Below, piece by piece: positions 5,994-23,795 of a stretch of DNA of 64,000 nucleotides. Location: IMG/VR virus record IMGVR_UViG_3300045988_092720, one strand, 5' to 3'. The translations under genes and the position numbers were made by a program. Source of the stretch: a virus. Under the pieces are notes generated by a model. It made no database searches, was not told where the DNA came from, and saw only the letters and a list, made by a program, of their open reading frames with translations. Each line of letters opens with the position of its first letter. The stretch's first letter is position 1.

Positions 5994-6399
5994 ATCTTTT
6001 CATTTCTTGCATTAAACCATTAATGATTTGAATAAATTTTACTACTGTTATATCTTCTTCTAGTTTACCATTTATATAGTCAAATGTCAACCCAATTACT
6101 GACGGTGGAACATCAAACACTGATACAACTTCACTTCCTGTTTCACTATCTGTAATAAATGCAATTTTATCTCCTTGTCTTACAAGGAAACGACCTTTTA
6201 AGCCATCCATAATAGCTTCGTCATCTAATACATCAACAGTATGATACATTTGTAAAAGTGCATCTAAATCATCACGACATTGATTTAATAAGTATTCTAC
6301 TTCCATAAAATCATCATGTAAAGTCGCAACATTATTAATCTCTTTCATACGACTATTAAGTATTGTCATCTTATTCCGTAATTTTATCAGTGTATTCAT
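5938..6399 (-). CDS. hypothetical protein (153 aa)
   Basis: ORF in the operon. Confidence 0.45.
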   Translation of the reverse strand: MNTLIKLRNKMTILNSRMKEINNVATLHDDFMEVEYLLNQCRDDLDALLQMYHTVDVLDDEAIMDGLKGRFLVRQGDKIAFITDSETGSEVVSVFDVPPSVIGLTFDYINGKLEEDITVVKFIQIINGLMQEMKRYEFSKGVWLQYECRNKCL

Positions 6400-8233: not shown

Positions 8234-8254
8234 GTACCGCCCTCCTATGCATTC

Positions 8255-8283
8255 ATTGTAGCAAAAGGAGAGGGGGCTGTCAA
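8255..8283 (-). promoter_or_regulatory. sigma70-like promoter TTGACAGC-17-TACAAT, -35 in the loop of a 7-bp GC hairpin
   Basis: Minus-sense gagggggTTGACAgccccctctccttttgcTACAAT; hairpin GAGGGGG/CCCCCTC at 8270-8290. Confidence 0.55.
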
Positions 8284-8297
8284 CCCCCTCGCTGACA

Positions 8298-10694
8298 CTA
8301 CCGAACTGGGCAATGTCCATCCTCGCATTCACTATCTTCATCAATCTCAAAATCTTTACCTACTGTTTGTAGTTCAAATTCATAACGATTAACTAAATCA
8401 TGGTCTAATGGTTCCATATTTGTTTTGAGCTCAATATACTCTTCACGTGTACATTCTTCATATGGCATTAATGGATAATAATCTTGATTTAAAGATAGGA
8501 AAGAAATACCAACTACGTATTTCCAGTTATTATCTAACCAGTCAATTACGTCTTCCCATTCATCTTCTTTAACCGTAACAGTAATAGATGTGTTATGGTC
8601 CACGTAATATCGTTGCATCATTTTATATTGCTCTAATTGTTCTAACGCCGATACGTTGTTTTTTGTAACAAGCGACTTAGACTTACAAGGGAAAGTAATA
8701 ACCTTAGTATTGCCATCGTCATCCTGACCAACTTCATTGTCAATTTTCCAACCTTTCAAATGTTTAACTGCTTGATATAAAGGAGAGTTTGTAGAAATAC
8801 GCACTCGTCTATAATAATATGGAGAGTGATTATAATGAACACCTGCGGAACAACCACTGATTAAGCCACCAGTACCATCTGGTTGTACTGTTGTATACAA
8901 TACAGGTCTAGGAGATTGATTAGCATCAGCGTATTCATTTGCAGCATCGTTAATCCACATCTTCATTAATACAAGCAGAGCTTCTTGGTCTGATTTACTT
9001 AAATTACCAGTAACAGCATCTTGCCAACCCGTAATAGAACAACCAATCAAACGGTCTCTATGGTGAATTTCTGACCAATCTTTCAATTCTAATTCAGGTT
9101 CTGTTAAACGATAACAAGCACGAGCAGATAATCTGCAAGCCTCTTTAAGCTGAGGTATCATTACATTACCACGTTCGTCGATAAATTTAGATACGTTAAT
9201 ATTAGTAAGATTACACACAGCTTTATTTGGCAACATAATTTCCGCACAGGGGTTGACAATAGCAAAATCAGTCCTACGTTCTTTAGCTGCTTTCACATTG
9301 ATAAAGCCAGGTTCTCCAGTTTCTTTAATAGAATACATCAATTTAGATAATTCTTCACGGCTCGGCTTTTCTTCTAAATACATAGAATTGTTAGACATAT
9401 AGCGGAAGTAATGCTCTGGGTCTAAATTCTCTTTAGCATGTAGCATTTCTTCGTCATCTGGACTGAATAAAATAAGTTCAGCCGTTCTTCGTGTACCACC
9501 AGCTACTACATTTTGTCCTACAATATTACAAATATCAGATACATTAATAGGTCTTAATTTGCCATTTGTACTTTCTTTAGTGATGATTTTATGGATTTTA
9601 TCAAACATCTCTTTAAGAGATTTAAAACCACTAGCATAACCACCAAATGTTTTAAGTGGGGCACCTTGAGGTCTAATATAACTGTAATCTAAAGAGATAG
9701 AACGAATTGTAACATCAGTCATAGCAGTAAGGTATTCATGTAAAGCCTCACACCAACCCTCTTTGCTATCACCAACAGTAATTACAAGGCTATTACCATA
9801 TTTTTTAGAGTTAGTATGTTCCAAAGTAGAACCCTGTGGGATTGGAGTTTTTACATGATAAATTTCTTTATCGGTATGGAAGTGCGGTAGTTTAGCCACA
9901 TCTTCTTTTAGTACACGGCAACCTACGCCAGTACCAACCATTAACAAATAGAACAATTCAGAGAATGCTCCTAATGTATCCATTACCATGCCAGAGCAGT
10001 TATACGCCGCTAATGGTGTTTTTTCTAACGCCTCAGTTCCGCCCATCCATAACATACGACCAGAAACACGTTGTCGTAAATTAAACATATTGTCAAATAG
10101 TTTTTCAGGCTCACCATCTTCGGTAGGCAGATACGAACAGTTACCATTAACAGCACGAGCACACGTTTCTTTCCATGTTTCACGTCTGTTTTTATCTGGT
10201 AGCCAACGAGAGTATGTACGAATGTAAACAAATTTAGCTAACTCATCCATACAATCTGGATAGTCAGGATACTGTGCTAAAAATGCGTCAGTTAATTTAT
10301 GTTTACTACGTGCCACGTCACGTTTTGTTTTGTATTCAATATATTTAATGGCGGCATCGCCATAACCATCATCATATAATTTATTATAAATTAAACGCTC
10401 AATATCATGAATTGTAACGTCCTTTTTTACATCTTTAATAATATTCCATACGTGCAAAGATACTTGGAATGGTTCTGCCAACATAGTTGGTTCCATAGCC
10501 ATATATGTAGCAAACATTGCTTTCTCTACTGCACGCTCAATTTTTTGACCTAAGTATTCCTCTTTTGTGCCATCACGCTTAATTACTTGCATCTTCCACC
10601 TCGTCATATAACAATTTAAAAATCTCTTTATCACAAGGGTATTGTTCATTATTGACACCAATAATAATTTTATCACCCTCGTTACAATGTACAA
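8298..10694 (-). CDS. ribonucleotide reductase large subunit with N-terminal ATP cone; likely class II (B12-dependent, NrdJ-like)
   Basis: ATP-cone VIKRDGTKEEYLGQKIERAV; active-site IVNPCAEIMLP (NPC.E rather than class I NLC.E); C-terminal CEDGHC Cys pair; likely true start MQVIKRDG at 10592 (GAGGTGG RBS). Confidence 0.6.
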   Translation of the reverse strand: MYIVTRVIKLLLVSIMNNTLVIKRFLNCYMTRWKMQVIKRDGTKEEYLGQKIERAVEKAMFATYMAMEPTMLAEPFQVSLHVWNIIKDVKKDVTIHDIERLIYNKLYDDGYGDAAIKYIEYKTKRDVARSKHKLTDAFLAQYPDYPDCMDELAKFVYIRTYSRWLPDKNRRETWKETCARAVNGNCSYLPTEDGEPEKLFDNMFNLRQRVSGRMLWMGGTEALEKTPLAAYNCSGMVMDTLGAFSELFYLLMVGTGVGCRVLKEDVAKLPHFHTDKEIYHVKTPIPQGSTLEHTNSKKYGNSLVITVGDSKEGWCEALHEYLTAMTDVTIRSISLDYSYIRPQGAPLKTFGGYASGFKSLKEMFDKIHKIITKESTNGKLRPINVSDICNIVGQNVVAGGTRRTAELILFSPDDEEMLHAKENLDPEHYFRYMSNNSMYLEEKPSREELSKLMYSIKETGEPGFINVKAAKERRTDFAIVNPCAEIMLPNKAVCNLTNINVSKFIDERGNVMIPQLKEACRLSARACYRLTEPELELKDWSEIHHRDRLIGCSITGWQDAVTGNLSKSDQEALLVLMKMWINDAANEYADANQSPRPVLYTTVQPDGTGGLISGCSAGVHYNHSPYYYRRVRISTNSPLYQAVKHLKGWKIDNEVGQDDDGNTKVITFPCKSKSLVTKNNVSALEQLEQYKMMQRYYVDHNTSITVTVKEDEWEDVIDWLDNNWKYVVGISFLSLNQDYYPLMPYEECTREEYIELKTNMEPLDHDLVNRYEFELQTVGKDFEIDEDSECEDGHCPVR

Positions 10695-11034
10695 TACCGT
10701 TTAATGTAAAGACCAATTCACCAGCTTTACTTTCACGGTATTTTAGTTTATTCGGTTTATGAACACATTGAGTCCATTTATAACCTTTGTGTGGTCCAAC
10801 AAAATCATGCTCAATATCAGCGATAATTTTTGTGAGAGAATAAGGTGGCTTATGTCTTGCAAGAAATGGTACAAGAGTTTCAAATGTTAAATACGGTAAT
10901 GAAACCATTTGACCTTGCACATTTTTACCAAATATACTGAGCACATTATTTTCTAGGATTACAAAATTTTCAAATCCTTGTTCTGTCATCTGTCTAAATA
11001 ATCTTGTTATATTTTCTTCTTGTGAAATTCTCAT
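10579..11034 (-). CDS. hypothetical protein (151 aa)
   Basis: ORF in the operon. Confidence 0.45.
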   Translation of the reverse strand: MRISQEENITRLFRQMTEQGFENFVILENNVLSIFGKNVQGQMVSLPYLTFETLVPFLARHKPPYSLTKIIADIEHDFVGPHKGYKWTQCVHKPNKLKYRESKAGELVFTLNGIVHCNEGDKIIIGVNNEQYPCDKEIFKLLYDEVEDASN

Positions 11035-11282
11035 TTTATTTTTTCCTCTAGGTCTTTTAATTTGTAATATGTACGTTGAATATAAAATTGATTAATTAAC
11101 ACATCAAATAGAATAAGAGTTAGCATAATCATCACGCCATTTTCTAGTCGCTGATTAATAACACCAAATGCAACAGCAATACAAGCATAAATCAATAAAG
11201 CTATTGCTTCTTTAATGCCCTCTTTGTTTTTACTGGCGAACTCTTTAATTTTTTCTTTCGTCGTTTTGGTTGGTCTTTGCAT
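11031..11282 (-). CDS. small membrane protein (83 aa)
   Basis: Two hydrophobic helices. Confidence 0.4.
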   Translation of the reverse strand: MQRPTKTTKEKIKEFASKNKEGIKEAIALLIYACIAVAFGVINQRLENGVMIMLTLILFDVLINQFYIQRTYYKLKDLEEKIK

Positions 11283-11443
11283 ACTACTACTTCCTTTTCA
11301 TGAAACCACTTACATTTACTACCAAATACAGAATAAAAGTATTCATCATTCTTGGGGTCATATTTGACTAAGCCAATCTTGATAACACCTTTGGGTGTTT
11401 CTACCATTGTTCCTAATTTAATTTCTCTATTCTTTGAACTCAT
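11201..11443 (-). CDS. hypothetical protein with basic C-terminal tail (80 aa)
   Basis: Overlaps 11031..11282 by 82 nt in another frame. Confidence 0.35.
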   Translation of the reverse strand: MSSKNREIKLGTMVETPKGVIKIGLVKYDPKNDEYFYSVFGSKCKWFHEKEVVVCKDQPKRRKKKLKSSPVKTKRALKKQ

Positions 11444-11618
11444 ATTTCCCTACTACAACCCCATTATCTAATATTACCAATGCTTGTAATTGTACAGCAT
11501 CACATAATAAATTGACTGGGACACCGACCATACGTCTAAGAAACATAGCTTGCTCCATACAGTATTCTATAAACGCATTTTCATTCCGTGATACATATTC
11601 GTATTCTCTTAATGTCAT
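11427..11618 (-). CDS. hypothetical protein (63 aa)
   Basis: ORF. Confidence 0.3.
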   Translation of the reverse strand: MTLREYEYVSRNENAFIEYCMEQAMFLRRMVGVPVNLLCDAVQLQALVILDNGVVVGKYEFKE

Positions 11619-12055
11619 GTATGCCCCACCATCTTTTCATGTATTACTGTACGATTTTGTCTGCAAACATTTTCATAAATCATTTTACAGTCAAAATAAA
11701 CACGCTTCAATAAATCAATTTGTGTTTGAACTAATCTCTGGTTGTATACTGTTTGAGTATAATCTTTCCATGCACCTTGCACTTCTTCATGTGTAGTAGC
11801 AATACGGTCCCCCTCAGTAACCTTATTTGAACTTTCACGACTAATTTTAGCATGAGTTGCTTTTGCGAAGCGTTCTAAATCAGATGCTCTTTTGTTAATT
11901 TCGTGTGATAATTCTTCAAAACTAGGTATTAATAAGGAGGACTCTTTCATCAAATAGAATGCTGTGTCTGCATCATTATCTTGTAATGTTTTATACATTT
12001 CACAAATTTCATCAGACAATTCTTTGATTTCTTCGTATTGCATAATAATTACCAC
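11615..12055 (-). CDS. hypothetical protein (146 aa)
   Basis: ORF. Confidence 0.45.
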   Translation of the reverse strand: MVIIMQYEEIKELSDEICEMYKTLQDNDADTAFYLMKESSLLIPSFEELSHEINKRASDLERFAKATHAKISRESSNKVTEGDRIATTHEEVQGAWKDYTQTVYNQRLVQTQIDLLKRVYFDCKMIYENVCRQNRTVIHEKMVGHT

Positions 12056-12294
12056 TCCATAGCTTCAGTACAAGCACCGAATTTAATAATAAGATTGCCC
12101 ATCATCTTCTTAGCTTTGTCTTCATCATTAAATTTAGCAATCACTTCTGTTCGACCATTCGCCAAGGAGCCCTTGATATTATAACCAATAACTAAATTTT
12201 TATCTGTATCATCATACACAGCAGAGATAAAGACAGATTGGCATTCTAAGATTTTAGAACAATCTTTATTTACTATTCTCATTGGCTTCACCAC
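12049..12294 (-). CDS. hypothetical protein (81 aa)
   Basis: ORF. Confidence 0.35.
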   Translation of the reverse strand: MVKPMRIVNKDCSKILECQSVFISAVYDDTDKNLVIGYNIKGSLANGRTEVIAKFNDEDKAKKMMGNLIIKFGACTEAMEW

Positions 12295-12514
12295 CTTTTA
12301 CTACCATTTCTTCTAACGCATCTAATGTTTCTGCTACTAGAATTTCAGCCGTATCATAACGATTAGTCGCACGATTTACAATGTCAATTGTAGCAGCATT
12401 CGCTGATGCGATTACTTGCAATAAGATACCAGAGTTTTTAATATTGGTATCAAAACTTACTACACCATCTTCGCTCAATGTAATATTAAAATATTTCTTC
12501 TCTTTTAATTGCAT
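12266..12514 (-). CDS. hypothetical protein (82 aa)
   Basis: ORF. Confidence 0.35.
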   Translation of the reverse strand: MQLKEKKYFNITLSEDGVVSFDTNIKNSGILLQVIASANAATIDIVNRATNRYDTAEILVAETLDALEEMVVKGGEANENSK

Positions 12515-13160
12515 CGTATAATTCCTCTTTAATGAAAAATAATCTAGGTAAATATGGTCTACTGATTACAACCATATCACTATTATCCTGATTGAAATAT
12601 TTTTCAATCTTTTTAAGACCTTTAGGCTCTTTAGGAATTGCTTCTCCAAAGTCTACCTTATTAATCAACGCTTCAAATAAATCTTGGCGTAGCATATAAG
12701 CGAAACCTGTGTAATAAATAGGACCATCTTCGGCTTTTTTATACAACCCATCAGTATTAACATCACGTTTACTTTCGATGGTGTATATTTTGTCGCCAAT
12801 ATCCCATTTTAAATCACCAGACATTCGTTTAGCAATTTCGCTATCACCATAACCCTTAATAGCATTTGTAAGTTTAAAAGCACCTGAAGCAGGTACAGCG
12901 TGTACATTGAGGTGTTTTGACTCTAGGTATTTTAACAAATCATTCTCTGCTTTCCTACCATTACGTCTATTGGCTTTTCCTCTCTTACTTGCCGTAGTCT
13001 GCTTCTTTGCTTTCTTTGCTAACTTGCGTTCTAGCTTATCTTCCTCTTGTCGAGGTGATAAAATATTAGGGTTTTTAGGTTGATATAGGTTATAGTTATC
13101 ACAGTACCAACAACTATCCTTTGGTATTTTGCAATTCGCCTTTACCTTGCATTTCGTCAA
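12486..13160 (-). CDS. hypothetical protein (224 aa)
   Basis: ORF; N-terminal Cys cluster CKIPKDSCWYCDNY. Confidence 0.45.
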   Translation of the reverse strand: MTKCKVKANCKIPKDSCWYCDNYNLYQPKNPNILSPRQEEDKLERKLAKKAKKQTTASKRGKANRRNGRKAENDLLKYLESKHLNVHAVPASGAFKLTNAIKGYGDSEIAKRMSGDLKWDIGDKIYTIESKRDVNTDGLYKKAEDGPIYYTGFAYMLRQDLFEALINKVDFGEAIPKEPKGLKKIEKYFNQDNSDMVVISRPYLPRLFFIKEELYDAIKREEIF

Positions 13161-13434
13161 TCATCAAACTCCCTAATACGCAATAAACAATAATATCATG
13201 TAATCGTTCTTGTGCATCTGGTAATTTCAACCCATTTTCAGCCAATGCTAAATCATGTTTACCTTTATAAACAAGTAGAGCATCAAACATAGATTGGATA
13301 CTACCATCACCATGAACTAAACCAGCCTTACGGAATGCTGACAAGATATCTTTACCATCGGAATATTGTTCACTTTTCTTTACGAATAGGTCGATAATCG
13401 TATTGAGTTTATTGGTAAAATCTTTAGTCTGCAT
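13114..13434 (-). CDS. hypothetical protein (106 aa)
   Basis: ORF. Confidence 0.4.
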   Translation of the reverse strand: MQTKDFTNKLNTIIDLFVKKSEQYSDGKDILSAFRKAGLVHGDGSIQSMFDALLVYKGKHDLALAENGLKLPDAQERLHDIIVYCVLGSLMIDEMQGKGELQNTKG

Positions 13435-13936
13435 TTAAACCCTCCGCAATACCTAACAATAATTCTTGTACTTCTGTTGGCAATTCATCAAAGTCTACAT
13501 CCTTGCCATTTAAATCATAGCAACAACCGAATAAACCACTTTCTTGAATACAGTTATCTTCGAGTGGCTCTCCTGTAAATGCATCATAACCCATTTCATT
13601 TGGGTCTTCATATACTGGCTCATCTTCAAAAGTAGCACTTGTTTTTTCAAGGTGGTCAATCATTACATCATAGAATACATCAACATCAACACCTAATTCA
13701 TGTGCAACAATTTCAGAATAGATAGCAGTAATATCCTGAATGGATAAATTGCCAACCTTAACACCAACTGCACCATTTTCTTTTACTTCTGCTTTTAAAA
13801 ATCCTTTTGTTTTAATCATGTAATTCCCTTCCTTTGTCGCAAAATTGCCAAACATTACAATAACTCTTGCATTTTCTTCCTCCCCAACATTCTCTATGTC
13901 TACAAGGTGGGGGCATTTCGTTGTTTTCCAACGCAT
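13424..13936 (-). CDS. hypothetical protein (probable true start 13819, 131 aa)
   Basis: Track start overlaps the upstream gene by 125 nt; internal ATG 13819 has an AAGGAAGGGAAT RBS. Confidence 0.4.
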   Translation of the reverse strand: MRWKTTKCPHLVDIENVGEEENARVIVMFGNFATKEGNYMIKTKGFLKAEVKENGAVGVKVGNLSIQDITAIYSEIVAHELGVDVDVFYDVMIDHLEKTSATFEDEPVYEDPNEMGYDAFTGEPLEDNCIQESGLFGCCYDLNGKDVDFDELPTEVQELLLGIAEGLNAD

Positions 13937-14720
13937 ATATTAAGTCCTGACTTTTCTTTCTCATATATCTTTCGACCCAAATATCTGAGATTTTATTAAT
14001 CGGGACTAAATAACTTGGTTCTGTAATACCACGGCTAGTAGCTATATGTGTATTACCATCACGTACAAGAATTTGACAACACATATTATTTACTGGTAAT
14101 TTTAACTTACTTTCAATCTTCATACGGTAATCATTTAATTGTACAGCTAAATCAAATCTTAGGTGAACACCATCTTTGCGTAATACATTAACGGTTTTCT
14201 TTTGACCCTTTTTAGCACCAGATTTATAAATATAATCAGTTTCTACCTTTTCCATATAATACCCTAATGTATGGGCTGCTTTATAGCTACCATATGTTTT
14301 AGTATCAACTAATGTGCCACCATTTTCAGGTGTATAATAATCGAATGCACCAGTGGAATAATCATCTTCGATACGTATTTCAGCCACTTCACCATGAGCT
14401 GTGCCTACATGACTTTCTAAACCACCGTGTACTTCTGTACCAAACAACATGAATACAGAGTCTTTAGGTGAGATATGATACTTTTGTGTAAGTTCAAGGA
14501 AAACTTCACGTGTACCTTTGAGTAACTGTGTGGTAGATGGTTTACCTGTCCATTTACGTTGTTCTGAAATGGCACGTAATGTTTGTAGGCTCATACATCT
14601 ACCAGCAGGTACCCAAAGTTCTCCATCATCATTATATTCACCACATAATCTGCATTTAGAAAGGCATTCGTCAATATAAATTAAGTTTCCATCTGGACAT
14701 TTATAATTGATATATGGCAT
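13812..14720 (-). CDS. putative PD-(D/E)xK nuclease with C-terminal Cys cluster (Cas4/RecB-like)
   Basis: N-terminal CxxC pairs and C-terminal CRHRECWGGRKCKSYCNVWQFC cluster typical of Fe-S Cas4-like exonucleases; weak call. Confidence 0.35.
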   Translation of the reverse strand: MPYINYKCPDGNLIYIDECLSKCRLCGEYNDDGELWVPAGRCMSLQTLRAISEQRKWTGKPSTTQLLKGTREVFLELTQKYHISPKDSVFMLFGTEVHGGLESHVGTAHGEVAEIRIEDDYSTGAFDYYTPENGGTLVDTKTYGSYKAAHTLGYYMEKVETDYIYKSGAKKGQKKTVNVLRKDGVHLRFDLAVQLNDYRMKIESKLKLPVNNMCCQILVRDGNTHIATSRGITEPSYLVPINKISDIWVERYMRKKSQDLIYALENNEMPPPCRHRECWGGRKCKSYCNVWQFCDKGRELHD

Positions 14721-14994
14721 CTTTATCCTCTTTGTAAAAATATACTTTAATATCTTGAGGTCCTACATGACCAGTAACATAGCTATATTCAACAAGAATA
14801 ATACGACCATCATTACATTCAAAAACTTTTGTAACGTACGAACACCAATCATCATTGTCATTGGTAATATATTGACCAACCTCTTTAGCGAAACCAATAG
14901 GATAGTCAATAAACATAAGTGGGTCTTGCAAGGCACGTTTAAGTTCTTTAATATTTTCTTTTGTCATAGTTCTTTTAAATATATGTGTATGCAT
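14701..14994 (-). CDS. hypothetical protein (97 aa)
   Basis: ORF. Confidence 0.4.
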   Translation of the reverse strand: MHTHIFKRTMTKENIKELKRALQDPLMFIDYPIGFAKEVGQYITNDNDDWCSYVTKVFECNDGRIILVEYSYVTGHVGPQDIKVYFYKEDKDAIYQL

Positions 14995-15014
14995 TTATCT
15001 TAAATCACCTTTAC

Positions 15015-15191
15015 TTAATATTCAAAATCAGGCGGACCAAATACAGGGCGACGATTAAAATCAATATAATGACGATTATTACGACGCATCCATTCTAATT
15101 GTGAGCCTGTCGGACCATAACACGGTTCGCCAAAACTTCTTTTATATACTTTCTCTTGATGTTCTTCTTGGATAGATTTTACATTGTCCAT
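15015..15191 (-). CDS. hypothetical small protein (58 aa)
   Basis: AAGGAGG RBS, ATG 15191; directly downstream of a promoter; <60 aa so not in track. Confidence 0.4.
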   Translation of the reverse strand: MDNVKSIQEEHQEKVYKRSFGEPCYGPTGSQLEWMRRNNRHYIDFNRRPVFGPPDFEY

Positions 15192-15212
15192 AATAGCCTC
15201 CTTATATTATAT

Positions 15213-15241
15213 ATAATAGCATATTAATTATCAGCTGTCAA
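15213..15241 (-). promoter_or_regulatory. sigma70-like promoter TTGACAGCTGA-17-TATTAT
   Basis: Minus-sense TTGACAgctgataattaatatgcTATTAT; the -35 lies in the last codons of the primase-helicase gene. Confidence 0.45.
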
Positions 15242-17203
15242 TACTTCTTCTAATCGTGAAGTATGTATATTGTACTTTAATTCAAACATTGGTGGACCAT
15301 TCATACCATCACGTGCTTTCTCTACTTTACATCGTGTAATATTGCGAAGCTCTTGCTGTTTTTCTAATGATAAATTAGGTGCCCTATCAGGTCTCCATAT
15401 CATAAGAATATAATCAGCCGATGCCTCCAAATCACCAGTCATTCTTAATTGGTTCATTGTCGGCTCTTCGTATGTATTACCACTACGGTTAAGCTGTGAT
15501 AACATGGTGAAAATTACGTTATATCGTTTAGCAATGCCTTTCATCATAAGAGCTTGTTGGCTTGCACCATCGTAATCACCTGCACCTTTTAAATAGGTAA
15601 AGTAATCAACAACGATAACATCTACTCCGCCATCCATAATATTGCGTGTATTAATTGTATTAATATAACGCTCTATATCATGCATAGATAAATTGTTCTC
15701 ATCTACAATATACAACTTTTTACCAATTTTTTCAAGTACTTGATTGACAACTGGGTCGTTGTTCATAATCAATTCTTTAACTTCTGATATACGTTTTTTA
15801 AGTATCTTGCACACAATACGTTCCATAATTTTGCCACGTGGCATTTCTAAACTAAAGAACACTACATTAGCTTTATTTTGAACTATCTGTCGCAAGATAT
15901 ACTCAATAGCTATATCACTTTTGCCTGACGAACTGTAAGCCCCTATCAATAAAACTTGCCCTTTAGATATACCACCAATACAATTATCTAGCAACTGGAA
16001 ATGAGTAGGGTATGTACCACGCTTATAAATATCACGCAATTGATTTAAGCTACTAGACGCATCGTGTAATGTTTCAACAATATCCTCTTCAGCAGATACC
16101 CCACTATCAAAATACGCCTTTAAATCAGATACGTCTCTATCCCAAATTTGACCAAGAGCTTTAATGGCTTCTGCTCTAATCATAGGAGACCGTATTGTTT
16201 TAAGGAAAGCCTCAGCAACAACATACTGTTGTTCAATTGTCTTGTATTGTTTAATTACTTGTTTGATTGTAAAAATATCAATATGTTCCGTAGGTAAATC
16301 TTGTAAATTATATCCTGCACATAACAAGTCATTAATATCTTTACATTCTTCTGGCATAATTAGAACACGTACATTCACGCGAGGTAGCATTGCTTGGAAA
16401 TGGTCTCTTGTACGTGGTAAATGCTTAACACCAGCTTCGTCATTATCAGGACAAATTACTATCGTAATTTCTTTACGCATGAAATTACCTAATTTCTTAA
16501 TCTGGTCTTTATGTAATTCACTACCACAATAAGCTACCGTTGGAACACCCATTTGATGACCACTAATAGCATCCATATATCCCTCACATAAGTAAAGAGT
16601 ATCTTTAATATGTTTCCTAGCTAAATCTAAATTAAATAAAAACGCTGATTTCTTATATAAGATACTATTGGGAGTATTCTTATATTTAGGCTTTTTATTG
16701 AATTGTCTGATTGCCAAGCTCACATGTTGTCCATGCTCATTTCTTAAAGGAATTGTTAGACAATCATTATGGAACCCCAATTTAAAATCGTTGATTGTAT
16801 CATCTGATAGCCCACGCTTATGTAAATACTCTGTAATCTGTTTGACATTCTTGTGGTACATTTCTGCTTCTCTAGTAAATCTCATTTCTTCACTAGCTTC
16901 TAATTGGTATTCCTTGTTGTCTTTCAGACTAATATTACATTCATTTGCCAGTATTTCAGTAGCTGCACGATAACTAATCTTTTCTTTATCAGATAGAAAA
17001 TTAATTACACTACCGCCACACTCACAACTAAAGCAATAGAATGAATTAGTATCAGGGAAAACCACTAATGTTTCTGATGTATCATCACTTTCATGTAATG
17101 GACACTTCCCTTTCCAATATCGACCGCTTTGATGTAAATTAGTATATTTGCCGATAAAGTCTATAATATCTACTTGTTGCATTATAGTTTCGGTTATATT
17201 CAT
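15224..17203 (-). CDS. bifunctional DNA primase-helicase (zinc-finger + TOPRIM + DnaB/RecA-like helicase)
   Basis: CPLHESDD...CFSCECGG zinc finger; central TOPRIM-like region; C-terminal Walker A GAYSSSGKSD and DnaB-like helicase motifs. Confidence 0.7.
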   Translation of the reverse strand: MNITETIMQQVDIIDFIGKYTNLHQSGRYWKGKCPLHESDDTSETLVVFPDTNSFYCFSCECGGSVINFLSDKEKISYRAATEILANECNISLKDNKEYQLEASEEMRFTREAEMYHKNVKQITEYLHKRGLSDDTINDFKLGFHNDCLTIPLRNEHGQHVSLAIRQFNKKPKYKNTPNSILYKKSAFLFNLDLARKHIKDTLYLCEGYMDAISGHQMGVPTVAYCGSELHKDQIKKLGNFMRKEITIVICPDNDEAGVKHLPRTRDHFQAMLPRVNVRVLIMPEECKDINDLLCAGYNLQDLPTEHIDIFTIKQVIKQYKTIEQQYVVAEAFLKTIRSPMIRAEAIKALGQIWDRDVSDLKAYFDSGVSAEEDIVETLHDASSSLNQLRDIYKRGTYPTHFQLLDNCIGGISKGQVLLIGAYSSSGKSDIAIEYILRQIVQNKANVVFFSLEMPRGKIMERIVCKILKKRISEVKELIMNNDPVVNQVLEKIGKKLYIVDENNLSMHDIERYINTINTRNIMDGGVDVIVVDYFTYLKGAGDYDGASQQALMMKGIAKRYNVIFTMLSQLNRSGNTYEEPTMNQLRMTGDLEASADYILMIWRPDRAPNLSLEKQQELRNITRCKVEKARDGMNGPPMFELKYNIHTSRLEEVLTADN

Positions 17204-17210
17204 ATATACC

Positions 17211-17543
17211 TCATAAGTTTAAAACATCATCCAAGCTATAACTTTCTACTTTTTCTATCTTAACATTACGCATTTCTTTTTCATTGTGTTTCTTTATACG
17301 ATAAAGCCTATATTGTTCTGCATCATGATACATTTCAGTTAATGTCATAATTTGTTTTTCAGGCTTATCTTGTAAATATTTTAATACCTTTTCTAGCGTA
17401 TTTTCATCTTGCTTATAGAAATGTGCTCGGATTTTAAAATAGGAGGGGTTAAAACCCCTCTTTAGAAATACAGGTTCGTCAGTACATTTTTGCATGAATA
17501 ATCGTGTTATTGCATCAAAAATGTTAAACTTTTTGGTACTCAT
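17211..17543 (-). CDS. hypothetical protein (110 aa)
   Basis: ORF. Confidence 0.4.
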   Translation of the reverse strand: MSTKKFNIFDAITRLFMQKCTDEPVFLKRGFNPSYFKIRAHFYKQDENTLEKVLKYLQDKPEKQIMTLTEMYHDAEQYRLYRIKKHNEKEMRNVKIEKVESYSLDDVLNL

Positions 17544-17815
17544 TTTATCACCGCATAAGATGCTCCATGCGTTCCCCTAATATCAATACGCTCAATATAT
17601 CCTAGGTCAGAAAGAATTTTAACGCCTCGCCAAGCAGTCATACGACCAAAACCAATACCCTCTGCAATTTCTGGCATGGTTAATTTGATGAATTTTTTGC
17701 CAGCTAAATCGTATCCATCTTCTTCTGCACGTCGTTTAATATACCCATGAACCAATGCTACTGTGATATTAAGCTCATGTAATATTTTTAAATCAACAAC
17801 AACACTATCAATCAT
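17540..17815 (-). CDS. winged helix-turn-helix DNA-binding regulator
   Basis: LTMPEIAEGIGFGRMTAWRGVKILSDLGYIER, a HTH pattern. Confidence 0.45.
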   Translation of the reverse strand: MIDSVVVDLKILHELNITVALVHGYIKRRAEEDGYDLAGKKFIKLTMPEIAEGIGFGRMTAWRGVKILSDLGYIERIDIRGTHGASYAVIK

Positions 17816-18503
17816 TTAGTTCACCTAACCTTTTTTGACTATGTTTTTTAGTTTCTTCATCAAAGCTAGATTGTTCAACAACCCAACGCAAATAATTTAC
17901 ATCGCTAATTTCAGAAATTGCTTTATTCGCATATTTACCTTTTGTAAATCGTGGAGTATCATCTTGTTGTGGTTCTTCGTTTGAACTGAAAATAGGATTG
18001 TCGTCGCTTTGTACTTGTGCGTGAACTTGTTGGTGACCTTTAGGTAAAGCCCACAAAGGCAAACGAGGAGGCTCAAATTTATTATAAGGTCCAAGATTAA
18101 CCCAACTTTCAGTTAAATTATATAAATAACGACCAATGCCAAACTGAACTGCCGCACGCTTCATACTATCAGACAAACCACCTTTAATTGGTTCAATATT
18201 AGTACAGCTCGCACCGTCTTCACGTGCTAAACAACGAGGACCATCTTCGGTATCAATAATAATATTTAATTCACAAATATAACCATTATCGCCACCACGA
18301 GATGTTTCTCTATATCTGTTAAACCATTTATCTGGTCCAACTACATCATCTAGGCGGTCCATAATCGCACGGTTAGTTACATATGGTAATACCATAGCTT
18401 TTTTACCGTCTTTTGATTTTTGACAAATTCGCCACTGAATATCCTCTGGTGGAAATGGTTCTTTTAACGCATCAAATATTTCTTTCATTGTTTTCTTTGC
18501 CAT
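17808..18503 (-). CDS. Rad52/Sak-like single-strand annealing protein
   Basis: PYVTNRAIMDRLDDVVGPDKW...YICEL...KRAAVQFGIGRYLY resembles the Rad52 N-terminal fold. Confidence 0.45.
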   Translation of the reverse strand: MAKKTMKEIFDALKEPFPPEDIQWRICQKSKDGKKAMVLPYVTNRAIMDRLDDVVGPDKWFNRYRETSRGGDNGYICELNIIIDTEDGPRCLAREDGASCTNIEPIKGGLSDSMKRAAVQFGIGRYLYNLTESWVNLGPYNKFEPPRLPLWALPKGHQQVHAQVQSDDNPIFSSNEEPQQDDTPRFTKGKYANKAISEISDVNYLRWVVEQSSFDEETKKHSQKRLGELND

Positions 18504-18518
18504 AATCTTTTTCCTTTC

Positions 18519-18555
18519 ATAAAATAAAATAAGATGTAGGGGAGGCTTGCTCCCC
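18519..18555 (-). terminator. intrinsic terminator/attenuator after the polymerase gene
   Basis: GGGGAG-gcttg-CTCCCC hairpin, then T-rich tract on the minus strand. Confidence 0.45.
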
Positions 18556-18569
18556 TCGTGGACAACCTC

Positions 18570-18598
18570 AGTCTACCACCCCCTGCTCAGGCTGTCAA
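18570..18598 (-). promoter_or_regulatory. promoter-like TTGACAGC-17-TAGACT inside the 3' end of the polymerase gene
   Basis: Shares the extended -35 TTGACAGC and upstream GTCAGC element with 8255 and 23619; weaker -10. Confidence 0.35.
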
Positions 18599-21505
18599 GC
18601 GGTCGAGCTGACAAGCGTCGGTGATGACCCCTTTGCTAATTCGTAGTGCGTGTACCGTTCCCTTAGTCAGCTTAGTAAAATCAACATCAAAGGTTACTAA
18701 CTTTTCCACGCCTGAATTCGTCTGTGCGGTAATAAAAGCATAAGGTTTACCGTGTTTAGTTTTACGTGCAGTTACAGAAAGTATGATAGCAGGCACAACA
18801 TTACCCACACATATACTTGTATCGTATTCATCAAAAATACTATTGAATGTGTATCCTAATGCTTTTAACTCCATAGCACCTTTGCTCAGATTATCTTTAG
18901 AATTAGCATCAAATTTATATTCACCTTTAGATTTACGTTTATCCTTTAGCCATTGTACATATTGAATATAGTCATTCCTATCATCGCCATCGTCAATTGC
19001 ACCACTATAAATTAAACCTTTTAATTGAGTTAAATTCATAGATGCATTCTTTTCTAAGAATTCTTTACCACGTGCACATTCATATGATTTAAGATTGCTA
19101 CATCCTGCAATTGCTCCAAGACCTAAACATACTGTATTCTTAGCAGTAGTACAGTGCTTATCTCCATATATATCAGGAGGTATAACTTTAATATTATTCT
19201 GTTTAGCATTATCTATAAATACTGATAGTTTTTCTTTGTCTCCAAAGTTGTTATCAAATATAGATGCATAAAATAACTCTGGATAATGTGCTTTTAAATA
19301 TGCACATCGCCAAGCAGTTAAACCATATGCGGCACTATGCCCTCTGTTAAATACATAGGAACCACAAGCAATCATTTGGTCAGCAATAGGTCTTACCACA
19401 TCTTCTGTATATCCATGTTCACTAGCACGCTTAACAAATTCGTCTACGGCTTGATTAATTTTATCTAACTCTTTACGACCGATAATGCGTCTCATAATAT
19501 CAGCTTCACCCATTGAATAGCCAGCTAATGTACGTACAATCTGCATAATTTGTTCTTGATATAAAATAACACCCTCAGTATCTTTTAAAATCGGTTCTAA
19601 TACAGGGTGTAAATATGTTACAGGCTCTTTGCCTTGTCTTCGTGCTATAAATACCTTGTCCATACCAACATCTAATACGCCAGGTCTTCCTATAGCTACA
19701 GTATCAACTAAATCATATACGCTCTTAGAATGGATACTCTTAACAATATTTGTCATTACGTCTGACTCAATTTGGAAAATACCAATGGTATTGCCACTCT
19801 GTAACAATTCTGCTGTCACTTTATCTTCTAACGGTATACTATGTATATCAAAATCACCAATACGATTAACTGTATTTTCAATAATATCTAATGTAGCTAA
19901 ACCTAGAATATCTAATTTAAGGATACCTTGCTTTTCTAAAATATGGAAATCTTCAGCCGCTACATACTGACCGTCTTGATACTCTATTGCACACCATTGA
20001 GCAGGGTCGCTAGGGAATACTGCAACTGCACTAGCATGAGTACTATAGTTTTCTAAGCGATTTAACATACTTTCTGCCATTTTCTTTAACTTAGCATCTT
20101 TAACTTCACTAATATCGTTGATGTTTTTAGATACTTTAGTTACATCAGATGGTTTCATATTTAATGCCCTACCAGCTTTTTGTACTGCTGCTTTGTCAGA
20201 TAAGAAGCCAAATGTTCTTACTGGATACGCATGGGTGTACTTTTCTTGAATATATTGAATAACTTCTTGTCTACGAGACTGTTGAAAATCACAATCTATA
20301 TCACAAGGGGTTACACGTTCTGGGTTTGTAAATCGTTCAAATACGAGATTGTATTGTAATGGGTCAATTTCTGTAATACCCATTAAATAAGCGACTAAAC
20401 TACCACAAACAGAACCACGACCTGCACCAGTAAGCATTCCTTTAGACTTAGCCCATTGTAACATATCATGAATGATACAAAAATAGTTATTATAATCAAC
20501 TTGAGTTAATACTTCAAGTTCATGTTTAACTTGTTTTGCATATTCATCTTTGTTAGGTTTTTTAGCAATACCTAGCTTTTTATATCCATCCCTACAATGG
20601 TCTAATACATATTTTGCAGGGTCTTTTACTGGGAATACAGGATAATGATTTTGACCAAATTCAATTTCTACATTACACTTATCAATAATATTACTAACAT
20701 TATCATAGTATTTTTGTTCTGGATAAATAGCCTTAAATTCATCTACAGTCCACATATGATAATCTCTACTACCATAATATGTTGACATATGATTATATTG
20801 CTCTTGATATTTTTGTTCTTCTTTATCGGAACTAGAATTATCTATCCTATATTGTATTTCTGCTAAATCTGCATCTAATAATAAGAAATCTCTATGCGAT
20901 TGCATTTGTTCGGGATACGCATAATGACTATCACCTGTAATAATAATAGGTACATTATATTTATCGCCAAGCTCCATAACTACTTTATTGTATTCCCATT
21001 GCAAAGGAAAATCATGAGGTTGTATTTCTAAATAAAAATCATCACCAAATGTATCTAACATACGTTGTATAAATTCGTCTCTAAGTAATTCATTTGATAA
21101 TGGACCAGCAACACAAGCAGTACTAACAATAATATCTTCATGGTATTCTCTTAATGCTTTATAATCAATTAATGGTTTATAATAGTGATGGTATGCACCA
21201 TATGTAGATAGCCTACGTAAGTTGTATAAACCTTCTGTTGATTTTGCTAACAATACCAAGTGATAACTTTCTCTAGTTTTTACATCTAAATCATATGAAA
21301 AATAGGCTTCCATACCAAGTATTGGTTTAATACCTGCATTTTGACAAGCAATATAATGTGATGTTAAACCAGATGTAGTACCGTGGTCTGTTAACGATAC
21401 GGCTGAATATCCTATTTCTTTAGCACGTTGTATACGCTCTTCTAAAGATGAATAAGCATCACGCCTACTATAAAAACTATGGCTATGTAAATCTGTAAAA
21501 TTCAT
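18587..21505 (-). CDS. DNA polymerase III alpha-like replicative polymerase with N-terminal PHP domain
   Basis: PHP motifs LHSHSFYS, SLTDHG, GMEAY; palm-like PCDIDCDF matching the PDIDxDF catalytic motif; 972 aa. Confidence 0.75.
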   Translation of the reverse strand: MNFTDLHSHSFYSRRDAYSSLEERIQRAKEIGYSAVSLTDHGTTSGLTSHYIACQNAGIKPILGMEAYFSYDLDVKTRESYHLVLLAKSTEGLYNLRRLSTYGAYHHYYKPLIDYKALREYHEDIIVSTACVAGPLSNELLRDEFIQRMLDTFGDDFYLEIQPHDFPLQWEYNKVVMELGDKYNVPIIITGDSHYAYPEQMQSHRDFLLLDADLAEIQYRIDNSSSDKEEQKYQEQYNHMSTYYGSRDYHMWTVDEFKAIYPEQKYYDNVSNIIDKCNVEIEFGQNHYPVFPVKDPAKYVLDHCRDGYKKLGIAKKPNKDEYAKQVKHELEVLTQVDYNNYFCIIHDMLQWAKSKGMLTGAGRGSVCGSLVAYLMGITEIDPLQYNLVFERFTNPERVTPCDIDCDFQQSRRQEVIQYIQEKYTHAYPVRTFGFLSDKAAVQKAGRALNMKPSDVTKVSKNINDISEVKDAKLKKMAESMLNRLENYSTHASAVAVFPSDPAQWCAIEYQDGQYVAAEDFHILEKQGILKLDILGLATLDIIENTVNRIGDFDIHSIPLEDKVTAELLQSGNTIGIFQIESDVMTNIVKSIHSKSVYDLVDTVAIGRPGVLDVGMDKVFIARRQGKEPVTYLHPVLEPILKDTEGVILYQEQIMQIVRTLAGYSMGEADIMRRIIGRKELDKINQAVDEFVKRASEHGYTEDVVRPIADQMIACGSYVFNRGHSAAYGLTAWRCAYLKAHYPELFYASIFDNNFGDKEKLSVFIDNAKQNNIKVIPPDIYGDKHCTTAKNTVCLGLGAIAGCSNLKSYECARGKEFLEKNASMNLTQLKGLIYSGAIDDGDDRNDYIQYVQWLKDKRKSKGEYKFDANSKDNLSKGAMELKALGYTFNSIFDEYDTSICVGNVVPAIILSVTARKTKHGKPYAFITAQTNSGVEKLVTFDVDFTKLTKGTVHALRISKGVITDACQLDRLTA

Positions 21506-22071
21506 ATTTTTACCTCATATCTTTTTGATTGACAATATTTATCAATTAATTGAGAAATAATATGGTCGTTCATTTTTTGCCTACTTTCATTTAATACATT
21601 TTTGATTATCAAAGCTCTATATTTTGGTATTACACTACCAACTTTATATGTTTCAGTAATTGTAGTTGGTTGTACTATATTAAATGAACTATAAAAATCA
21701 ATTTGTTCTGTTGAGCTGTTGCTTGTTAGTACCATAGGTATTCTTTGTTCATAACAAGAAAAACCATCTAATAATTCATGAATTTTCATTCTTACAACAA
21801 TTAAATCGTTACCTGCATTTTCGTATTGTATATTAACTAATTCGATACCAGCTCTTGATATAAATCCATCCGCTGACAATTCATGAACAAGTAATTGATT
21901 TAATGGCACTTGATTAAGAGGAGTTTCAATAATTAAATAGTCTTTGTTCCACGTGTTTATATAATATGCATTATCATTATTACTTACTGCACTAGCAAAT
22001 GACGATAGAGTTACTTTTAATATATCCTCATCATATGTATTTATTGGTTCAAATATTCTATATCTACTCAT
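21502..22071 (-). CDS. hypothetical protein (189 aa)
   Basis: ORF overlapping the polymerase start by 4 nt. Confidence 0.45.
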   Translation of the reverse strand: MSRYRIFEPINTYDEDILKVTLSSFASAVSNNDNAYYINTWNKDYLIIETPLNQVPLNQLLVHELSADGFISRAGIELVNIQYENAGNDLIVVRMKIHELLDGFSCYEQRIPMVLTSNSSTEQIDFYSSFNIVQPTTITETYKVGSVIPKYRALIIKNVLNESRQKMNDHIISQLIDKYCQSKRYEVKI

Positions 22072-22080
22072 ATTATCTCC

Positions 22081-22272
22081 TTATAAATCTGCGTAATCAT
22101 CTTCCATATATGCTAATATTAAACTTAATTCTTCATTAGATATAGTTTCTAAACTATCACCAGTTTTACAATCATCAATATAATATGCTAACCAACTCTG
22201 ATTACCTAAACTATGATGATAACTTTCAATTAATTTAATTTGATTTTCTCGCAATATATCTTGTGTTTGCAT
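22081..22272 (-). CDS. hypothetical protein (63 aa)
   Basis: ORF. Confidence 0.35.
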   Translation of the reverse strand: MQTQDILRENQIKLIESYHHSLGNQSWLAYYIDDCKTGDSLETISNEELSLILAYMEDDYADL

Positions 22273-22290
22273 TATTTATCCTTACTTTCA

Positions 22291-22455
22291 TTATAATACC
22301 TTCTCTAAATATTCAATATCTCTCATCCAATTGTCACGTTCAGCACACAGTCGTTTATTTGTTTCTTTCAGTTGTTTAATTAACTTTTCATTTTGCTTAA
22401 TTAAAGCATTAGTAATTGCAATATTTTCTCTAGTTTTTTCTTTTGTTTGATACAT
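22291..22455 (-). CDS. hypothetical small protein (54 aa)
   Basis: ATGGAGG RBS then ATG 22455, directly downstream of a consensus promoter; not in track. Confidence 0.4.
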   Translation of the reverse strand: MYQTKEKTRENIAITNALIKQNEKLIKQLKETNKRLCAERDNWMRDIEYLEKVL

Positions 22456-22476
22456 TTTTCTACCTCCATTTACTGC

Positions 22477-22505
22477 ATTATATCATACCTAAATAAATTT
22501 GTCAA
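22477..22505 (-). promoter_or_regulatory. consensus sigma70 promoter TTGACA-17-TATAAT
   Basis: Minus-sense TTGACAaatttatttaggtatgaTATAAT, about 20 nt before the RBS of the 54-aa ORF. Confidence 0.6.
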
Positions 22506-22506
22506 A

Positions 22507-22532
22507 TAAAAAAGGACCCCATAAAGGGGTCT
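22507..22532 (-). terminator. intrinsic terminator ending the late/lysis transcript
   Basis: Minus-sense GACCCC-tttat-GGGGTC followed by TTTTTTATTT. Confidence 0.6.
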
Positions 22533-23368
22533 ACTAAGTGTAACGTATTACGAAGTGTAATTCAATATTACGCTGAGTAATGTTATTCTTCTTTGTTTTA
22601 TATACTAAGTTGTAGTAATGTTATTACGTTCTAAGTGGTAGCGTTATAAATACCTAAAATACTGATACTGTAGAACCGCTACGCTAGGTGAAATACTCAC
22701 ATCGTTAGTTGCTGTAGTTGTAGATAATACCAAGAAGGAATATCTTTGTTCGTATTTTCTTTTTCTTATGTGTATTACCAACTAATCAATATCTGAACGC
22801 TAGTGAAGATATTCTGCGAACGCACCAGTTATGAATACCAAGTAACTGTATCACTTATTGGTAGTAATGTTGAGCATCTACTCTATATCTGTTACTACGC
22901 ACTTCGTTTGTAACTACTTCGTAGTTGATTGTAGTATATATTAATTAGTGAATATCTACTGTATTCTCTACTCGATGATTGCCCCAGTTAGTGCCGAGGT
23001 ATTGCCCCAATATACATGGGAGCGTATATACTTGTTTGGTATATAATCGAAACTTCATAGTTAATACTAAGGTAGCCCAGGTGTAGCTTTACCTACCACT
23101 CAAAAGAGTTTGTTTCGACTGCCATCTACGACGGGACAAAATCTGGGAAAATTGCACGCCAAACAGCCCCTGTCTCACAGCCATATTACCGAGTTGCTAA
23201 TTCGGTTCCGTTATTTTCAGTTGGTTTACGTTCTCAACACTATTCCGATATGATGTTTTATAAACATATTTAGTCAATACTCTGGATATACATGAGACTG
23301 CATGAACTTTCAAGGTTTGCCTATCTCCGTGCAATATGTATATTAGCAACCAGATATACTGAGTTGTG

Positions 23369-23569
23369 TTATCTTACATAACACTTACGTTCAGATGTTT
23401 TCCATACACTAGAAAATCTTTTGTATTTCTTACAAAACATTTGTGTACCATTCGTAGAATACGAACAATATTTACATCCTTTGCAATATTCTTTTTTCGG
23501 CTTTCTACGAGTGTGTTCAATACGACCACCCATTGAAACGCCATGTGTTCCTTTAGACCACTTTGCCAT
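23369..23569 (-). CDS. small basic zinc-ribbon-like protein (66 aa)
   Basis: AAGGAGAAAATT-ATG at 23569; CKGCKYC...FC...KC Cys pattern, K/R-rich; track ORF 23369..23611 starts further upstream inside a hairpin. Confidence 0.45.
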   Translation of the reverse strand: MAKWSKGTHGVSMGGRIEHTRRKPKKEYCKGCKYCSYSTNGTQMFCKKYKRFSSVWKTSERKCYVR

Positions 23570-23618
23570 AATTTTCTCCTTTCGGTAGAGCAAGTTCTGT
23601 GGCTCTACCACTACTCAC

Positions 23619-23647
23619 ATTGTAGCACCCTCACTGTCAGCTGTCAA
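23619..23647 (-). promoter_or_regulatory. sigma70-like promoter TTGACAGC-17-TACAAT with upstream GTCAGC/GCTGAC hairpin
   Basis: Minus-sense gtcagcaaaggtgTTGACAgctgacagtgagggtgcTACAAT. Confidence 0.55.
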
Positions 23648-23795
23648 CACCTTTGCTGACACCGCACCGTTGCTGGGTTTGTGAGGATTGTAGCACAGCC
23701 GAGGGCGAACCGTCAAGCCCACCCCTGACCGCACCACGGAGGAGATAACATTGCCTATAGTTATAGTAACATATAAAAATCAATTTGTCAAATTT

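Follow-up and report, generated by a model that had tools for sequence, protein, structure and literature searches.

The replication block and its relatives

The DNA considered here is a 64,000-nucleotide (nt) stretch of the IMG/VR virus record IMGVR_UViG_3300045988_092720 (hereafter the window; 35.5% G+C), and the elements in question are promoter-like sites that recur at gene junctions on its minus strand. The window encodes terminase, portal and tail proteins, plus a long co-directional minus-strand block in which SSB and dUTPase are encoded along with the following genes.

18587-21505, minus strand: PolIII-alpha/DnaE polymerase, replication block
17808-18503, minus strand: Rad52, replication block
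15224-17203, minus strand: DnaG-DnaB primase-helicase, replication block
8298-10694, minus strand: class II ribonucleotide reductase (RNR), stop codon 8300-8298, ending just before the promoter-like site at 8283
7290-7976, minus strand: ThyX

Megablast of positions 8000-24000 against cultured phages returned zero matches, and protein-level matches of the polymerase reach 32% identity at most, which left no annotated relative to work with. About 30 related contigs of 64-68 kb are present in IMG/VR, among which polymerase identity to the window is 99% for one contig, 93-95% for three, near 80% for some 20 (the 80% lineage below) and 44-51% for a more distant set. One member of the terminase cluster is found on a 68-kb contig that was binned with a metagenome-assembled genome (MAG) of Catenibacterium mitsuokai, which hints weakly at a low-GC Gram-positive gut host; a search of the literature on Catenibacterium and its phages found no study of this phage lineage.

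Seven promoter-like sites at gene junctions

An earlier note on this DNA had described four minus-strand sites of the form TTGACAGC-17-TAnnnT, whose sequences are exactly as it quoted them. TTGACAGC occurs five times in the window, on the minus strand only (1.74 expected; two of 100 shuffles reach five), and when TAnnnT is required after N15-19, four matches remain (8255-8283, 15213-15241, 18570-18598 and 23619-23647) versus 0.21 expected, a count reached in none of 100 shuffles. The spacer is 17 nt at all four copies, and a TG stands one base 5' of the -10 in each. The fifth copy, at 44807, lies inside a tail gene, has no -10 and was not counted as a member. A window-wide search for a TG-extended -10 with at least 10 of 12 hexamer matches gave 11 promoter-like sites, compared with 1.7 ± 1.2 in 200 shuffles (maximum 5). 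Seven sites, two of them unlisted in the earlier note, make up the set discussed here, given in the order in which they are met along the minus strand.

D'', 23763..23791, minus strand, AT class: TTGACA-17-TGTTACTAT, 5 nt past the stop of the open reading frame (ORF) 23796-24437; previously unlisted
D', 23687..23729, minus strand, GC class: GTCAGG 23729-23724, -35 TTGACG 23716-23711, 18-nt spacer, TGC + TACAAT 23695-23687, the whole laid out as GGTCAGG-N7-TTGACGGT-18-TGCTACAAT; previously unlisted
D, 23619..23660, minus strand, GC class: GTCAGC 23660-23655, -35 23647-23642, TGC + TACAAT 23627-23619
P5, 22505-22477, minus strand, AT class: perfect TTGACA-17-TGATATAAT
C, 18570..18612, minus strand, GC class: GTCAGC 18612-18607, -35 18598-18593 in the last PolIII-alpha codons, TGG + TAGACT 18578-18570
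B, 15213..15241, minus strand, AT class: TTGACA-17-TGCTATTAT in the last primase-helicase codons, with neither TCAG box nor hairpin
A, 8255..8296, minus strand, GC class: GTCAGC 8296-8291, -35 TTGACA 8283-8278, TGC + TACAAT 8263-8255

All seven are on the coding strand and at gene junctions. The -35 matches TTGACA at 6/6 positions everywhere except D' (5/6), D' alone has an 18-nt spacer, the other six having 17 nt, and the TG of an extended -10 is present at every site. The earlier note was also right about the fifth promoter, a perfect TTGACA-17-TATAAT at 22505-22477, and about two -35 elements lying in the last codons of upstream genes (15241 in the primase-helicase, 18598 in PolIII-alpha/DnaE). 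A, B and P5 have a like geometry, in which the -10 is followed by 21-22 nt holding an AGGAGG-type ribosome-binding site (RBS) and then by ATG; promoter A, for example, comes directly after the RNR stop codon, and its RBS and then the ATG (8233) follow about 22 nt past the -10. D'' (23791, the first), D' (23716) and D (23647) stand in tandem. The gene boundaries of the structural block have no site as strong as these, and late transcription must therefore rely on a different signal.

A possible weak extra member, E (6062..6102, minus strand; TCAG-N8-TTGACA-17-TGGTAAACT), lies within ORF 5938-6399, about 60 nt 5' of the ATG at 5993. This site (-35 at 6090) was not significant against the profile of the GC class described below and was not counted.

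Conservation of the promoter-like sites

Each site was aligned with its counterparts in the related contigs and the unique variants were tabulated (17-23 per site). The -35 is TTGACA in every variant at B, D, D'' and P5 (17/17 to 22/22), alternates between TTGACA and TTGACC at A and C, and between TTGACG and TTGACA at D'. Spacer length (17 or 18 nt) varies by no more than one base at any site, and the TGn-10 block shows little or no variation. At promoter D, the 13 spacer bases between these blocks are hypervariable among relatives, and the combination of fixed hexamers and spacing with a freely drifting spacer is, judged from aligned variants, the classical footprint of a sigma-70-type promoter. 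D' is nearly invariant in relatives, its whole spacer included. In L034, a contig of the distant set (48% polymerase identity), canonical AT-rich promoters occupy equivalent positions, namely as a tandem pair upstream, singly ahead of the replication genes and again directly past the polymerase match, with a fifth about 3.7 kb further downstream. Their common flank is a different, A-rich one, AAAAAG(T)AC-TTGACA.

These sites are probably ordinary host-RNA-polymerase promoters for the replication-gene transcripts of an uncultivated gut phage of about 66 kb, at each of which a host sigma-70/sigma-A-type holoenzyme would start transcription. Promoter function, although inferred, is well supported because of the variant footprint, the shared -10/RBS/ATG geometry and the equivalents in L034. 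The promoters would split the co-directional replication and nucleotide-metabolism block into transcription units, and appear to fall into two families of the same promoter type, one AT-rich (D'' 23791, P5 22505 and B 15241), the other GC-rich and paralogous (D' 23716, D 23647, C 18598 and A 8283).

Promoters of the sigma-A/sigma-70 extended -10 class combine TTGACA, a 17-18-nt spacer and TGnTAnnnT, 20-70 nt 5' of RBS and ATG, and the TGn extended -10 is common in low-GC Gram-positives. The window sites are alike in their TTGACA, their 17-18-nt spacer, TGnTAnnnT and placement, but four of them carry a GC-rich TCAG flank where an A/T-rich UP element normally sits. Extended -10 promoters (TGn, the '-16 region' of Gram-positives) are among the subjects of a review (PMC2613000).

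The TCAG box

It had been proposed that a GC extension of the -35 defines a recurring, phage-specific element. An extended architecture particular to this clade does recur, but the GC that follows the -35 is not general to it: among unique variants it is frequent at A (19/20), C (20/23) and D' (16/17), poorly kept at D (6/17) and B (3/22) and never found at D'' or P5. At C it is also part of a codon, and at B it is specific to the window lineage. GTCAGC had been noticed upstream of the -35 at three sites and is indeed found there, at distances of 7, 8 and 7 nt (8283, 18598 and 23647). TCAG-N7-9-TTGAC has six matches in the window versus 1.34 expected (reached in none of 100 shuffles), and the TCAG box stands 7-9 nt 5' of the -35 in 19/20 variants at A, 22/23 at C, 15/17 at D' and 17/17 at D, kept while its neighbouring bases vary, and absent at the AT-rich promoters B, D'' and P5. 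On these variant counts, the GC is not a general extended -35 element, and the better-conserved shared element is the TCAG box at A, C, D and D'. Literature searches for known comparators returned nothing on an extended -35.

The four boxed promoters also have a -10 of the type TGCTACA[AC]T in common (TGGTAGACT in some variants of C), which gives the GC-class consensus TG(C)TCAG[CGT]-N7-TTGAC[AG]GC-N~12-TG[CG]TA[CG]A[AC]T. When the window was searched with a profile built from A, C, D and D' together with their counterparts in relatives, these four came back (E 1e-10 to 2e-7), as expected by construction, and no further significant member, the next match having an E value above 2. Of the matches to a strict GC-class pattern on viral contigs, about 30 of 40 fall within this phage clade. 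On bacterial genomes the pattern has 101 scattered matches; among the 80 matches listed, no copy from this phage clade and no clue to the host was found. An apparent enrichment in Saccharibacteria/Patescibacteria proved to be an accidental match to the 1190-1240 region of 16S rRNA, and the matches in Acidobacteriaceae and Desulfofundulus are conserved promoters of their own. A divergent promoter starting from the upstream box (reverse complement CTGACA) was discounted by eye, there being no -10 at the proper distance.

An UP element is A/T-rich at about -40 to -60, while the GC-class flanks are G/C-rich (e.g. GTCAGCGAGGGGG); A-rich flanks are present at the AT-class promoters and in the L034 lineage. 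Because a GC-rich box at -40 to -50 is unlike an UP element, plain RNA polymerase recognition does not explain the TCAG box. Directly before the box, A, C and D read TG-TCAG in the window lineage and TGC-TCAG at all three in most of the 80% lineage. Loci as much as 15 kb apart have thus changed in concert, which implies either gene conversion between paralogous copies or co-evolution with a reader of the box.

One extension of the host-promoter reading, which would add to it rather than replace it, is that box and -35 together (TGTCA-N10-TGACA in the window lineage) form an operator for a phage or host DNA-binding protein that would turn the GC-class promoters on or off in the course of infection, so that the promoters make up two temporal classes. 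We regard this as a possibility, though a minority one. The box is retained though adjoining bases vary, it marks just four of the seven promoters, the concerted TGTCAG/TGCTCAG change at A, C and D would suit a co-evolving reader, the sister lineage has a different common flank, AAAAAG(T)AC, and two candidate binders are encoded, a RemA-like protein (2982-3398, minus strand; Pfam PF04025, 44.9 bits) and ORF 17540-17815, with a weak winged-helix match. However, the TGTCA/TGACA inverted repeat (TGTCA-N10/11-TGACA at A, C and D of the window lineage) is lost in the 80% lineage, where the sequence is GCTCAG and TCAG alone is constant; its half-sites, about 15 bp apart centre to centre, would face opposite sides of the helix; no activator is needed by promoters that combine a consensus -35 with an extended -10; and gene conversion between paralogous copies explains the concerted change equally well. 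A similar pairing of classes is known from T4, which has tandem early and middle promoters and where a MotA box replaces the -35. The window likewise has two tandem promoter classes before the same genes, one of them marked by an extra box, but its -35 is of consensus type and the box lies upstream of it, and no MotA/AsiA homologue was found.

The search for a regulator more generally, with Pfam and PHROGs over about 50 ORFs of 54-2793 amino acids (aa), several smaller ORFs lying outside the scan, recognised no phage RNA polymerase, sigma factor or classical repressor. As a side observation, ORF 2591-3112 (minus strand) overlaps the RemA-like ORF and shows similarity to a small terminase; the large terminase is encoded far away, at 53702-55138.

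Hairpins at and near the promoters

The sites had been described as embedded in or next to GC-rich hairpins. To judge this, 56 nt around each -35 were folded for each unique variant and compared with dinucleotide shuffles. The z score is about 0 at B, C and D and significant at A and D' only, so that a hairpin is not a common feature of the set. The following hairpins are found at or close to promoters.

8270..8290, minus strand: terminator-like hairpin A, GAGGGGG/CCCCCTC, with the -35 in its TTGACAG loop and TCCTTTT after it
18538..18556, minus strand: hairpin after promoter C, AGGGGAG/CUCCCCU, just past the -10 and followed by a U-rich stretch
23584..23609, minus strand: leader hairpin D, GGUAGAGC/GCUCUACC, 2-4 nt past the predicted promoter-D start and just before the RBS of a 66-aa ORF
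23690..23737, minus strand: D' hairpin, 48 nt, 21 pairs, G.U-rich, spanning all of the D' promoter, its apical loop formed by UGAC from the -35
22531-22515, minus strand: strong terminator adjoining promoter P5

Hairpin A is just as the earlier note had it, stem, TTGACAG loop and TCCTTTT included. Its z score is -2.1 to -3.4 in 14/14 unique variants, and its stem, GAGGGG(G)/(C)CCCCTC, has 7-9 bp and loses one G-C pair in step between the two lineages, one stem pair being altered on both sides in four variants. It has the GC-rich stem of at least 5 bp and the short loop of an intrinsic (Rho-independent) terminator. The U-tract after the stem is fair in the window lineage (UCCUUUUG, 5 U in 8) and poor in most relatives (CCUUGUGC or CUUUGUGC). 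At D, by contrast with the GTCAGC/GCTGAC hairpin proposed there, the minimum-energy fold pairs UGUCAGCA with UGUUGACA. The inverted repeat itself exists, spanning 23660-23636 and not 23630-23655, but is not the minimum-energy fold and is absent in 11/17 variants. The leader hairpin downstream of D has seven pairs and tolerates a change from A-U to G.U. The hairpin after promoter C is conserved (altered yet still pairable in L020 and L022) and is likely a terminator or attenuator for the polymerase transcript, a 5' stem-loop of the promoter-C transcript, or both. In covariation overall, changes on both sides are limited to the one pair of hairpin A and one pair of a -10/RBS stem, and Rfam has no match at the promoter sites themselves.

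The idea that each site is a terminator/insulator and promoter cassette with an integral GC-rich hairpin describes promoter A, and loosely P5 and C, rather than the whole set, for which we consider it unlikely. It draws on the conserved hairpin that encloses the -35 at A and has a U-rich tail, on the terminator that adjoins the promoter at P5 and on the hairpin that follows promoter C. Set against these are the missing structure at B, C and D, a hairpin position that varies from around the -35 (A) to upstream (P5) or downstream (C and D), the decay of the U-tract at A to CCUUGUGCU in most relatives, and the loss of the proposed D hairpin from so many variants.

The D' hairpin is of another kind. 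It has a predicted energy of -31.4 kcal/mol and a z score of -3.56 (reached in none of 200 shuffles; -1.6 to -4.6 in nine variants), and forms in sense-strand RNA only, antisense RNA giving z +0.67 and DNA z -0.21 on either strand, a value on which a DNA cruciform was rejected. If functional, the hairpin would act in transcripts from D''. With 21 pairs it has the approximately 20 bp of mostly continuous double-stranded RNA that characterise an RNase III-type hairpin. Its helix has a covariation term of -0.41 kcal/mol, and its changes are one-sided only, opposite the G/U-rich arm, a pattern that falls short of proof for the helix. Tandem early promoters (A1, A2 and A3) and RNase III R sites are found in T7, and Bs-RNase III sites in SP82 early RNA. 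In the window, three close strong host-type promoters likewise head a unit and, by analogy, its long leader hairpin might be a processing or stabilising site, although here the hairpin coincides with the second promoter itself.

It is therefore worth asking whether D' is primarily a structured RNA in the D'' leader, i.e. a hairpin of about 21 bp for RNase III-type processing or stabilisation, or for translational control, with the promoter superimposed on it. The strong, strand-specific and RNA-specific fold speaks for this, as do its retention in 9/9 variants despite a 1-nt deletion and several substitutions, the almost invariant spacer, and a consensus fold in which the RBS of the 66-aa ORF is paired to a CCUCC that precedes it. 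The absence of any stem pair altered on both sides speaks against it, as does the G/U-rich 3' arm, opposite which transitions in the 5' arm keep pairing by default; a perfect TTGAC-18-TGCTACAAT cannot be a by-product, and as the primary function of D' an RNA element seems improbable.

Consensus folding gave two observations near RBSs: within 8240-8268 (minus strand) the -10 region of promoter A pairs with the RBS of the next gene and, within the consensus fold of 23575-23745 (minus strand), the CCUCC mentioned above pairs with that of the 66-aa ORF. Such pairing would leave the RBS masked in read-through transcripts and unmasked in those started locally.

A last reading of the hairpins is suggested by N4, in which a virion RNA polymerase recognises early promoters that take the form of short DNA hairpins, with a stem of 5-7 bp and a loop of 3 nt. 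A promoter sequence within an inverted repeat is common to both phages, a hairpin loop contains the -35 at both A and D', and the virion module encodes a 2793-aa protein of no known family. Even so, recognition of hairpin-form promoters by a phage-encoded polymerase of this kind is highly improbable, since the window sites fit the sigma-70 consensus completely, the hairpins differ from one another and are lacking at most sites, that of D' does not form in DNA, and neither a uniform short DNA hairpin at each promoter nor a virion RNA polymerase gene is found. The factor reading the hairpins that the earlier note had considered did not turn up among the proteins scanned. The 2793-aa protein (ORF 24879-33260, minus strand), whose gene stands last in the structural module, matched nothing in Pfam, PHROG or PDB, contains neither DxDxD nor a T7-type motif B, and was rejected as a virion RNA polymerase for want of a family match and a polymerase motif; it may be an ejected or internal virion protein.

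The EGFOA RNA locus

The three tandem promoters D'', D' and D precede the 66-aa ORF, which is Cys-rich (23369-23569) and is followed by an ORF-free stretch of about 830 nt up to the terminator at 22531-22515. Within this stretch lies a known RNA motif, which is found at the same locus in relatives, including members of the 44-51% set.

23046-23152, minus strand: EGFOA RNA (RF02955), 73 bits versus a threshold of 38
EGFOA / EGFOA-assoc-1 locus in relatives: L002 4322-4698, L005 4320-4696, L013 4694-5069, L034 4534-4908
EGFOA / EGFOA-assoc-1 locus in further relatives: L016 4814-4920, L025 5648-5762, L035 5515-5623

EGFOA-assoc-1 (RF02970, about 300 bits) lies directly upstream of EGFOA in several relatives, and this clade of gut phages of about 66 kb appears to be a natural home of both orphan motifs. 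EGFOA RNAs have been reported in a 2026 preprint to form trimers and dimers (10.64898/2026.07.01.735769). From their position, the three tandem promoters are predicted to drive this ORF-free locus with its EGFOA motif, which places two orphan Rfam families 3' of three tandem strong promoters, an indication of the place and probably also of the time of their synthesis.

The 500 nt after EGFOA have 94-98% identity across the 80% lineage, versus 75-85% in flanking genes. Region 22540-23000 (minus strand) is the most conserved DNA of the locus, is rich in short repeats of GTAATA/TTACAC type and has no Rfam match.

Proposed transcription of the replication block

If the sites are host promoters, the hairpins would be site-specific add-ons with differing jobs at each junction rather than one module. 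At A, a terminator-like hairpin ending the reductase transcript would overlap the next promoter, which would put the -35 in its loop; at P5, the strong terminator would simply adjoin the promoter; at C and D, the hairpin would sit at the 5' end of the new transcript, probably as a stabiliser of the mRNA and at C maybe also as an attenuator of read-through; and at D', transcripts from the upstream D'' would fold the D' sequence into the long RNA hairpin. Stabilisation of transcripts by 5'-terminal stem-loops is known from mRNA decay in Firmicutes.

Several points weigh against so plain a reading. The sole clue to the host is the weak hint from the terminase-cluster member in the C. mitsuokai MAG. 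Function throughout, from initiation by the host polymerase and termination at A to what the TCAG box and the D' hairpin do, is deduced from sequence, statistics, conservation, gene positions and predicted folds. A conserved GC-rich box at -40 to -50 does not resemble the classical A/T-rich UP element, and the near-invariant D' spacer with its RNA-specific hairpin suggests an additional constraint that goes beyond what a promoter explains. Finally, the terminator-like hairpin past promoter C would, if efficient, abort the very transcripts that start there.

A bolder version, that the GC-rich promoters are a clade-specific regulated class whose TG(C)TCAG box next to the -35 is read by a co-evolving trans factor, of phage or host origin, and that the DNA of A and D' doubles as an RNA hairpin, is in our view doubtful. 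If true, the A and D' hairpins would act on read-through transcripts by termination, processing or RBS masking, and each site would be a dual DNA/RNA control point timing the replication genes and the EGFOA non-coding RNA locus.

For the host-promoter reading, a close parallel in arrangement is offered by the early units of Bacillus phage SPP1, in which the host-sigma-A promoters PE1-PE5 and stem-loop terminators bracket polycistronic units, the strongest early promoters drive replication genes and late genes have no recognisable consensus promoter (PMC6316719). There is no sequence relationship, however, and the window differs in the physical overlap of terminator and promoter at A and in its three tandem promoters feeding a non-coding RNA locus. 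The TCAG box and promoter DNA doubling as an RNA hairpin are modest twists on such schemes, not a new category. With seven host-type promoters predicted in the replication module, a first map of transcription is obtained for an uncultivated lineage of human-gut phages that is widespread, public metagenomes containing many such contigs of about 66-68 kb. The box and the promoters that double as RNA hairpins are testable leads for temporal control.

Other features of the window

In some relatives the genes for polymerase, reductase and terminase exceed those of the window by about 1 kb (polymerase match of 3869 nt in L030, RNR match of about 3366 nt in L085-L092, terminase cluster member of 812 aa). 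The 812-aa terminase is annotated with a LAGLIDADG homing endonuclease, which suggests intein or homing-endonuclease insertions.

A perfect TTGACA-17-TGTTATAAT at 61450-61422 (minus strand) lies antisense within an amidoligase-like gene on the plus strand (61268-62995). Three further non-coding regions have features of their own.

55140-55900: upstream of the terminase gene, with a long purine-rich tract, repeated GCCCCACCCC and a duplicated CTTTGRATTTTTGTATAAGCA unit at 55569 and 55603; a candidate late-promoter or packaging region
56380-57240, plus strand: AT-rich intergenic DNA with about ten degenerate AATTGTATNCAATTGAATTGTATAC-like copies at spacings of about 15 and 46 nt
57260-57440, plus strand: GC-rich segment of about 180 nt without an Rfam match at the gathering threshold

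The second of these regions is located between two strong terminators and a plus-strand promoter at 57083, and its AATTGTATNCAATTGAATTGTATAC-like array looks like iterons (an origin) or a regulator array. The third belongs to a leader of about 350 nt that runs from promoter 57083 to the first plus-strand ATG (57468), and may be a structured leader RNA.

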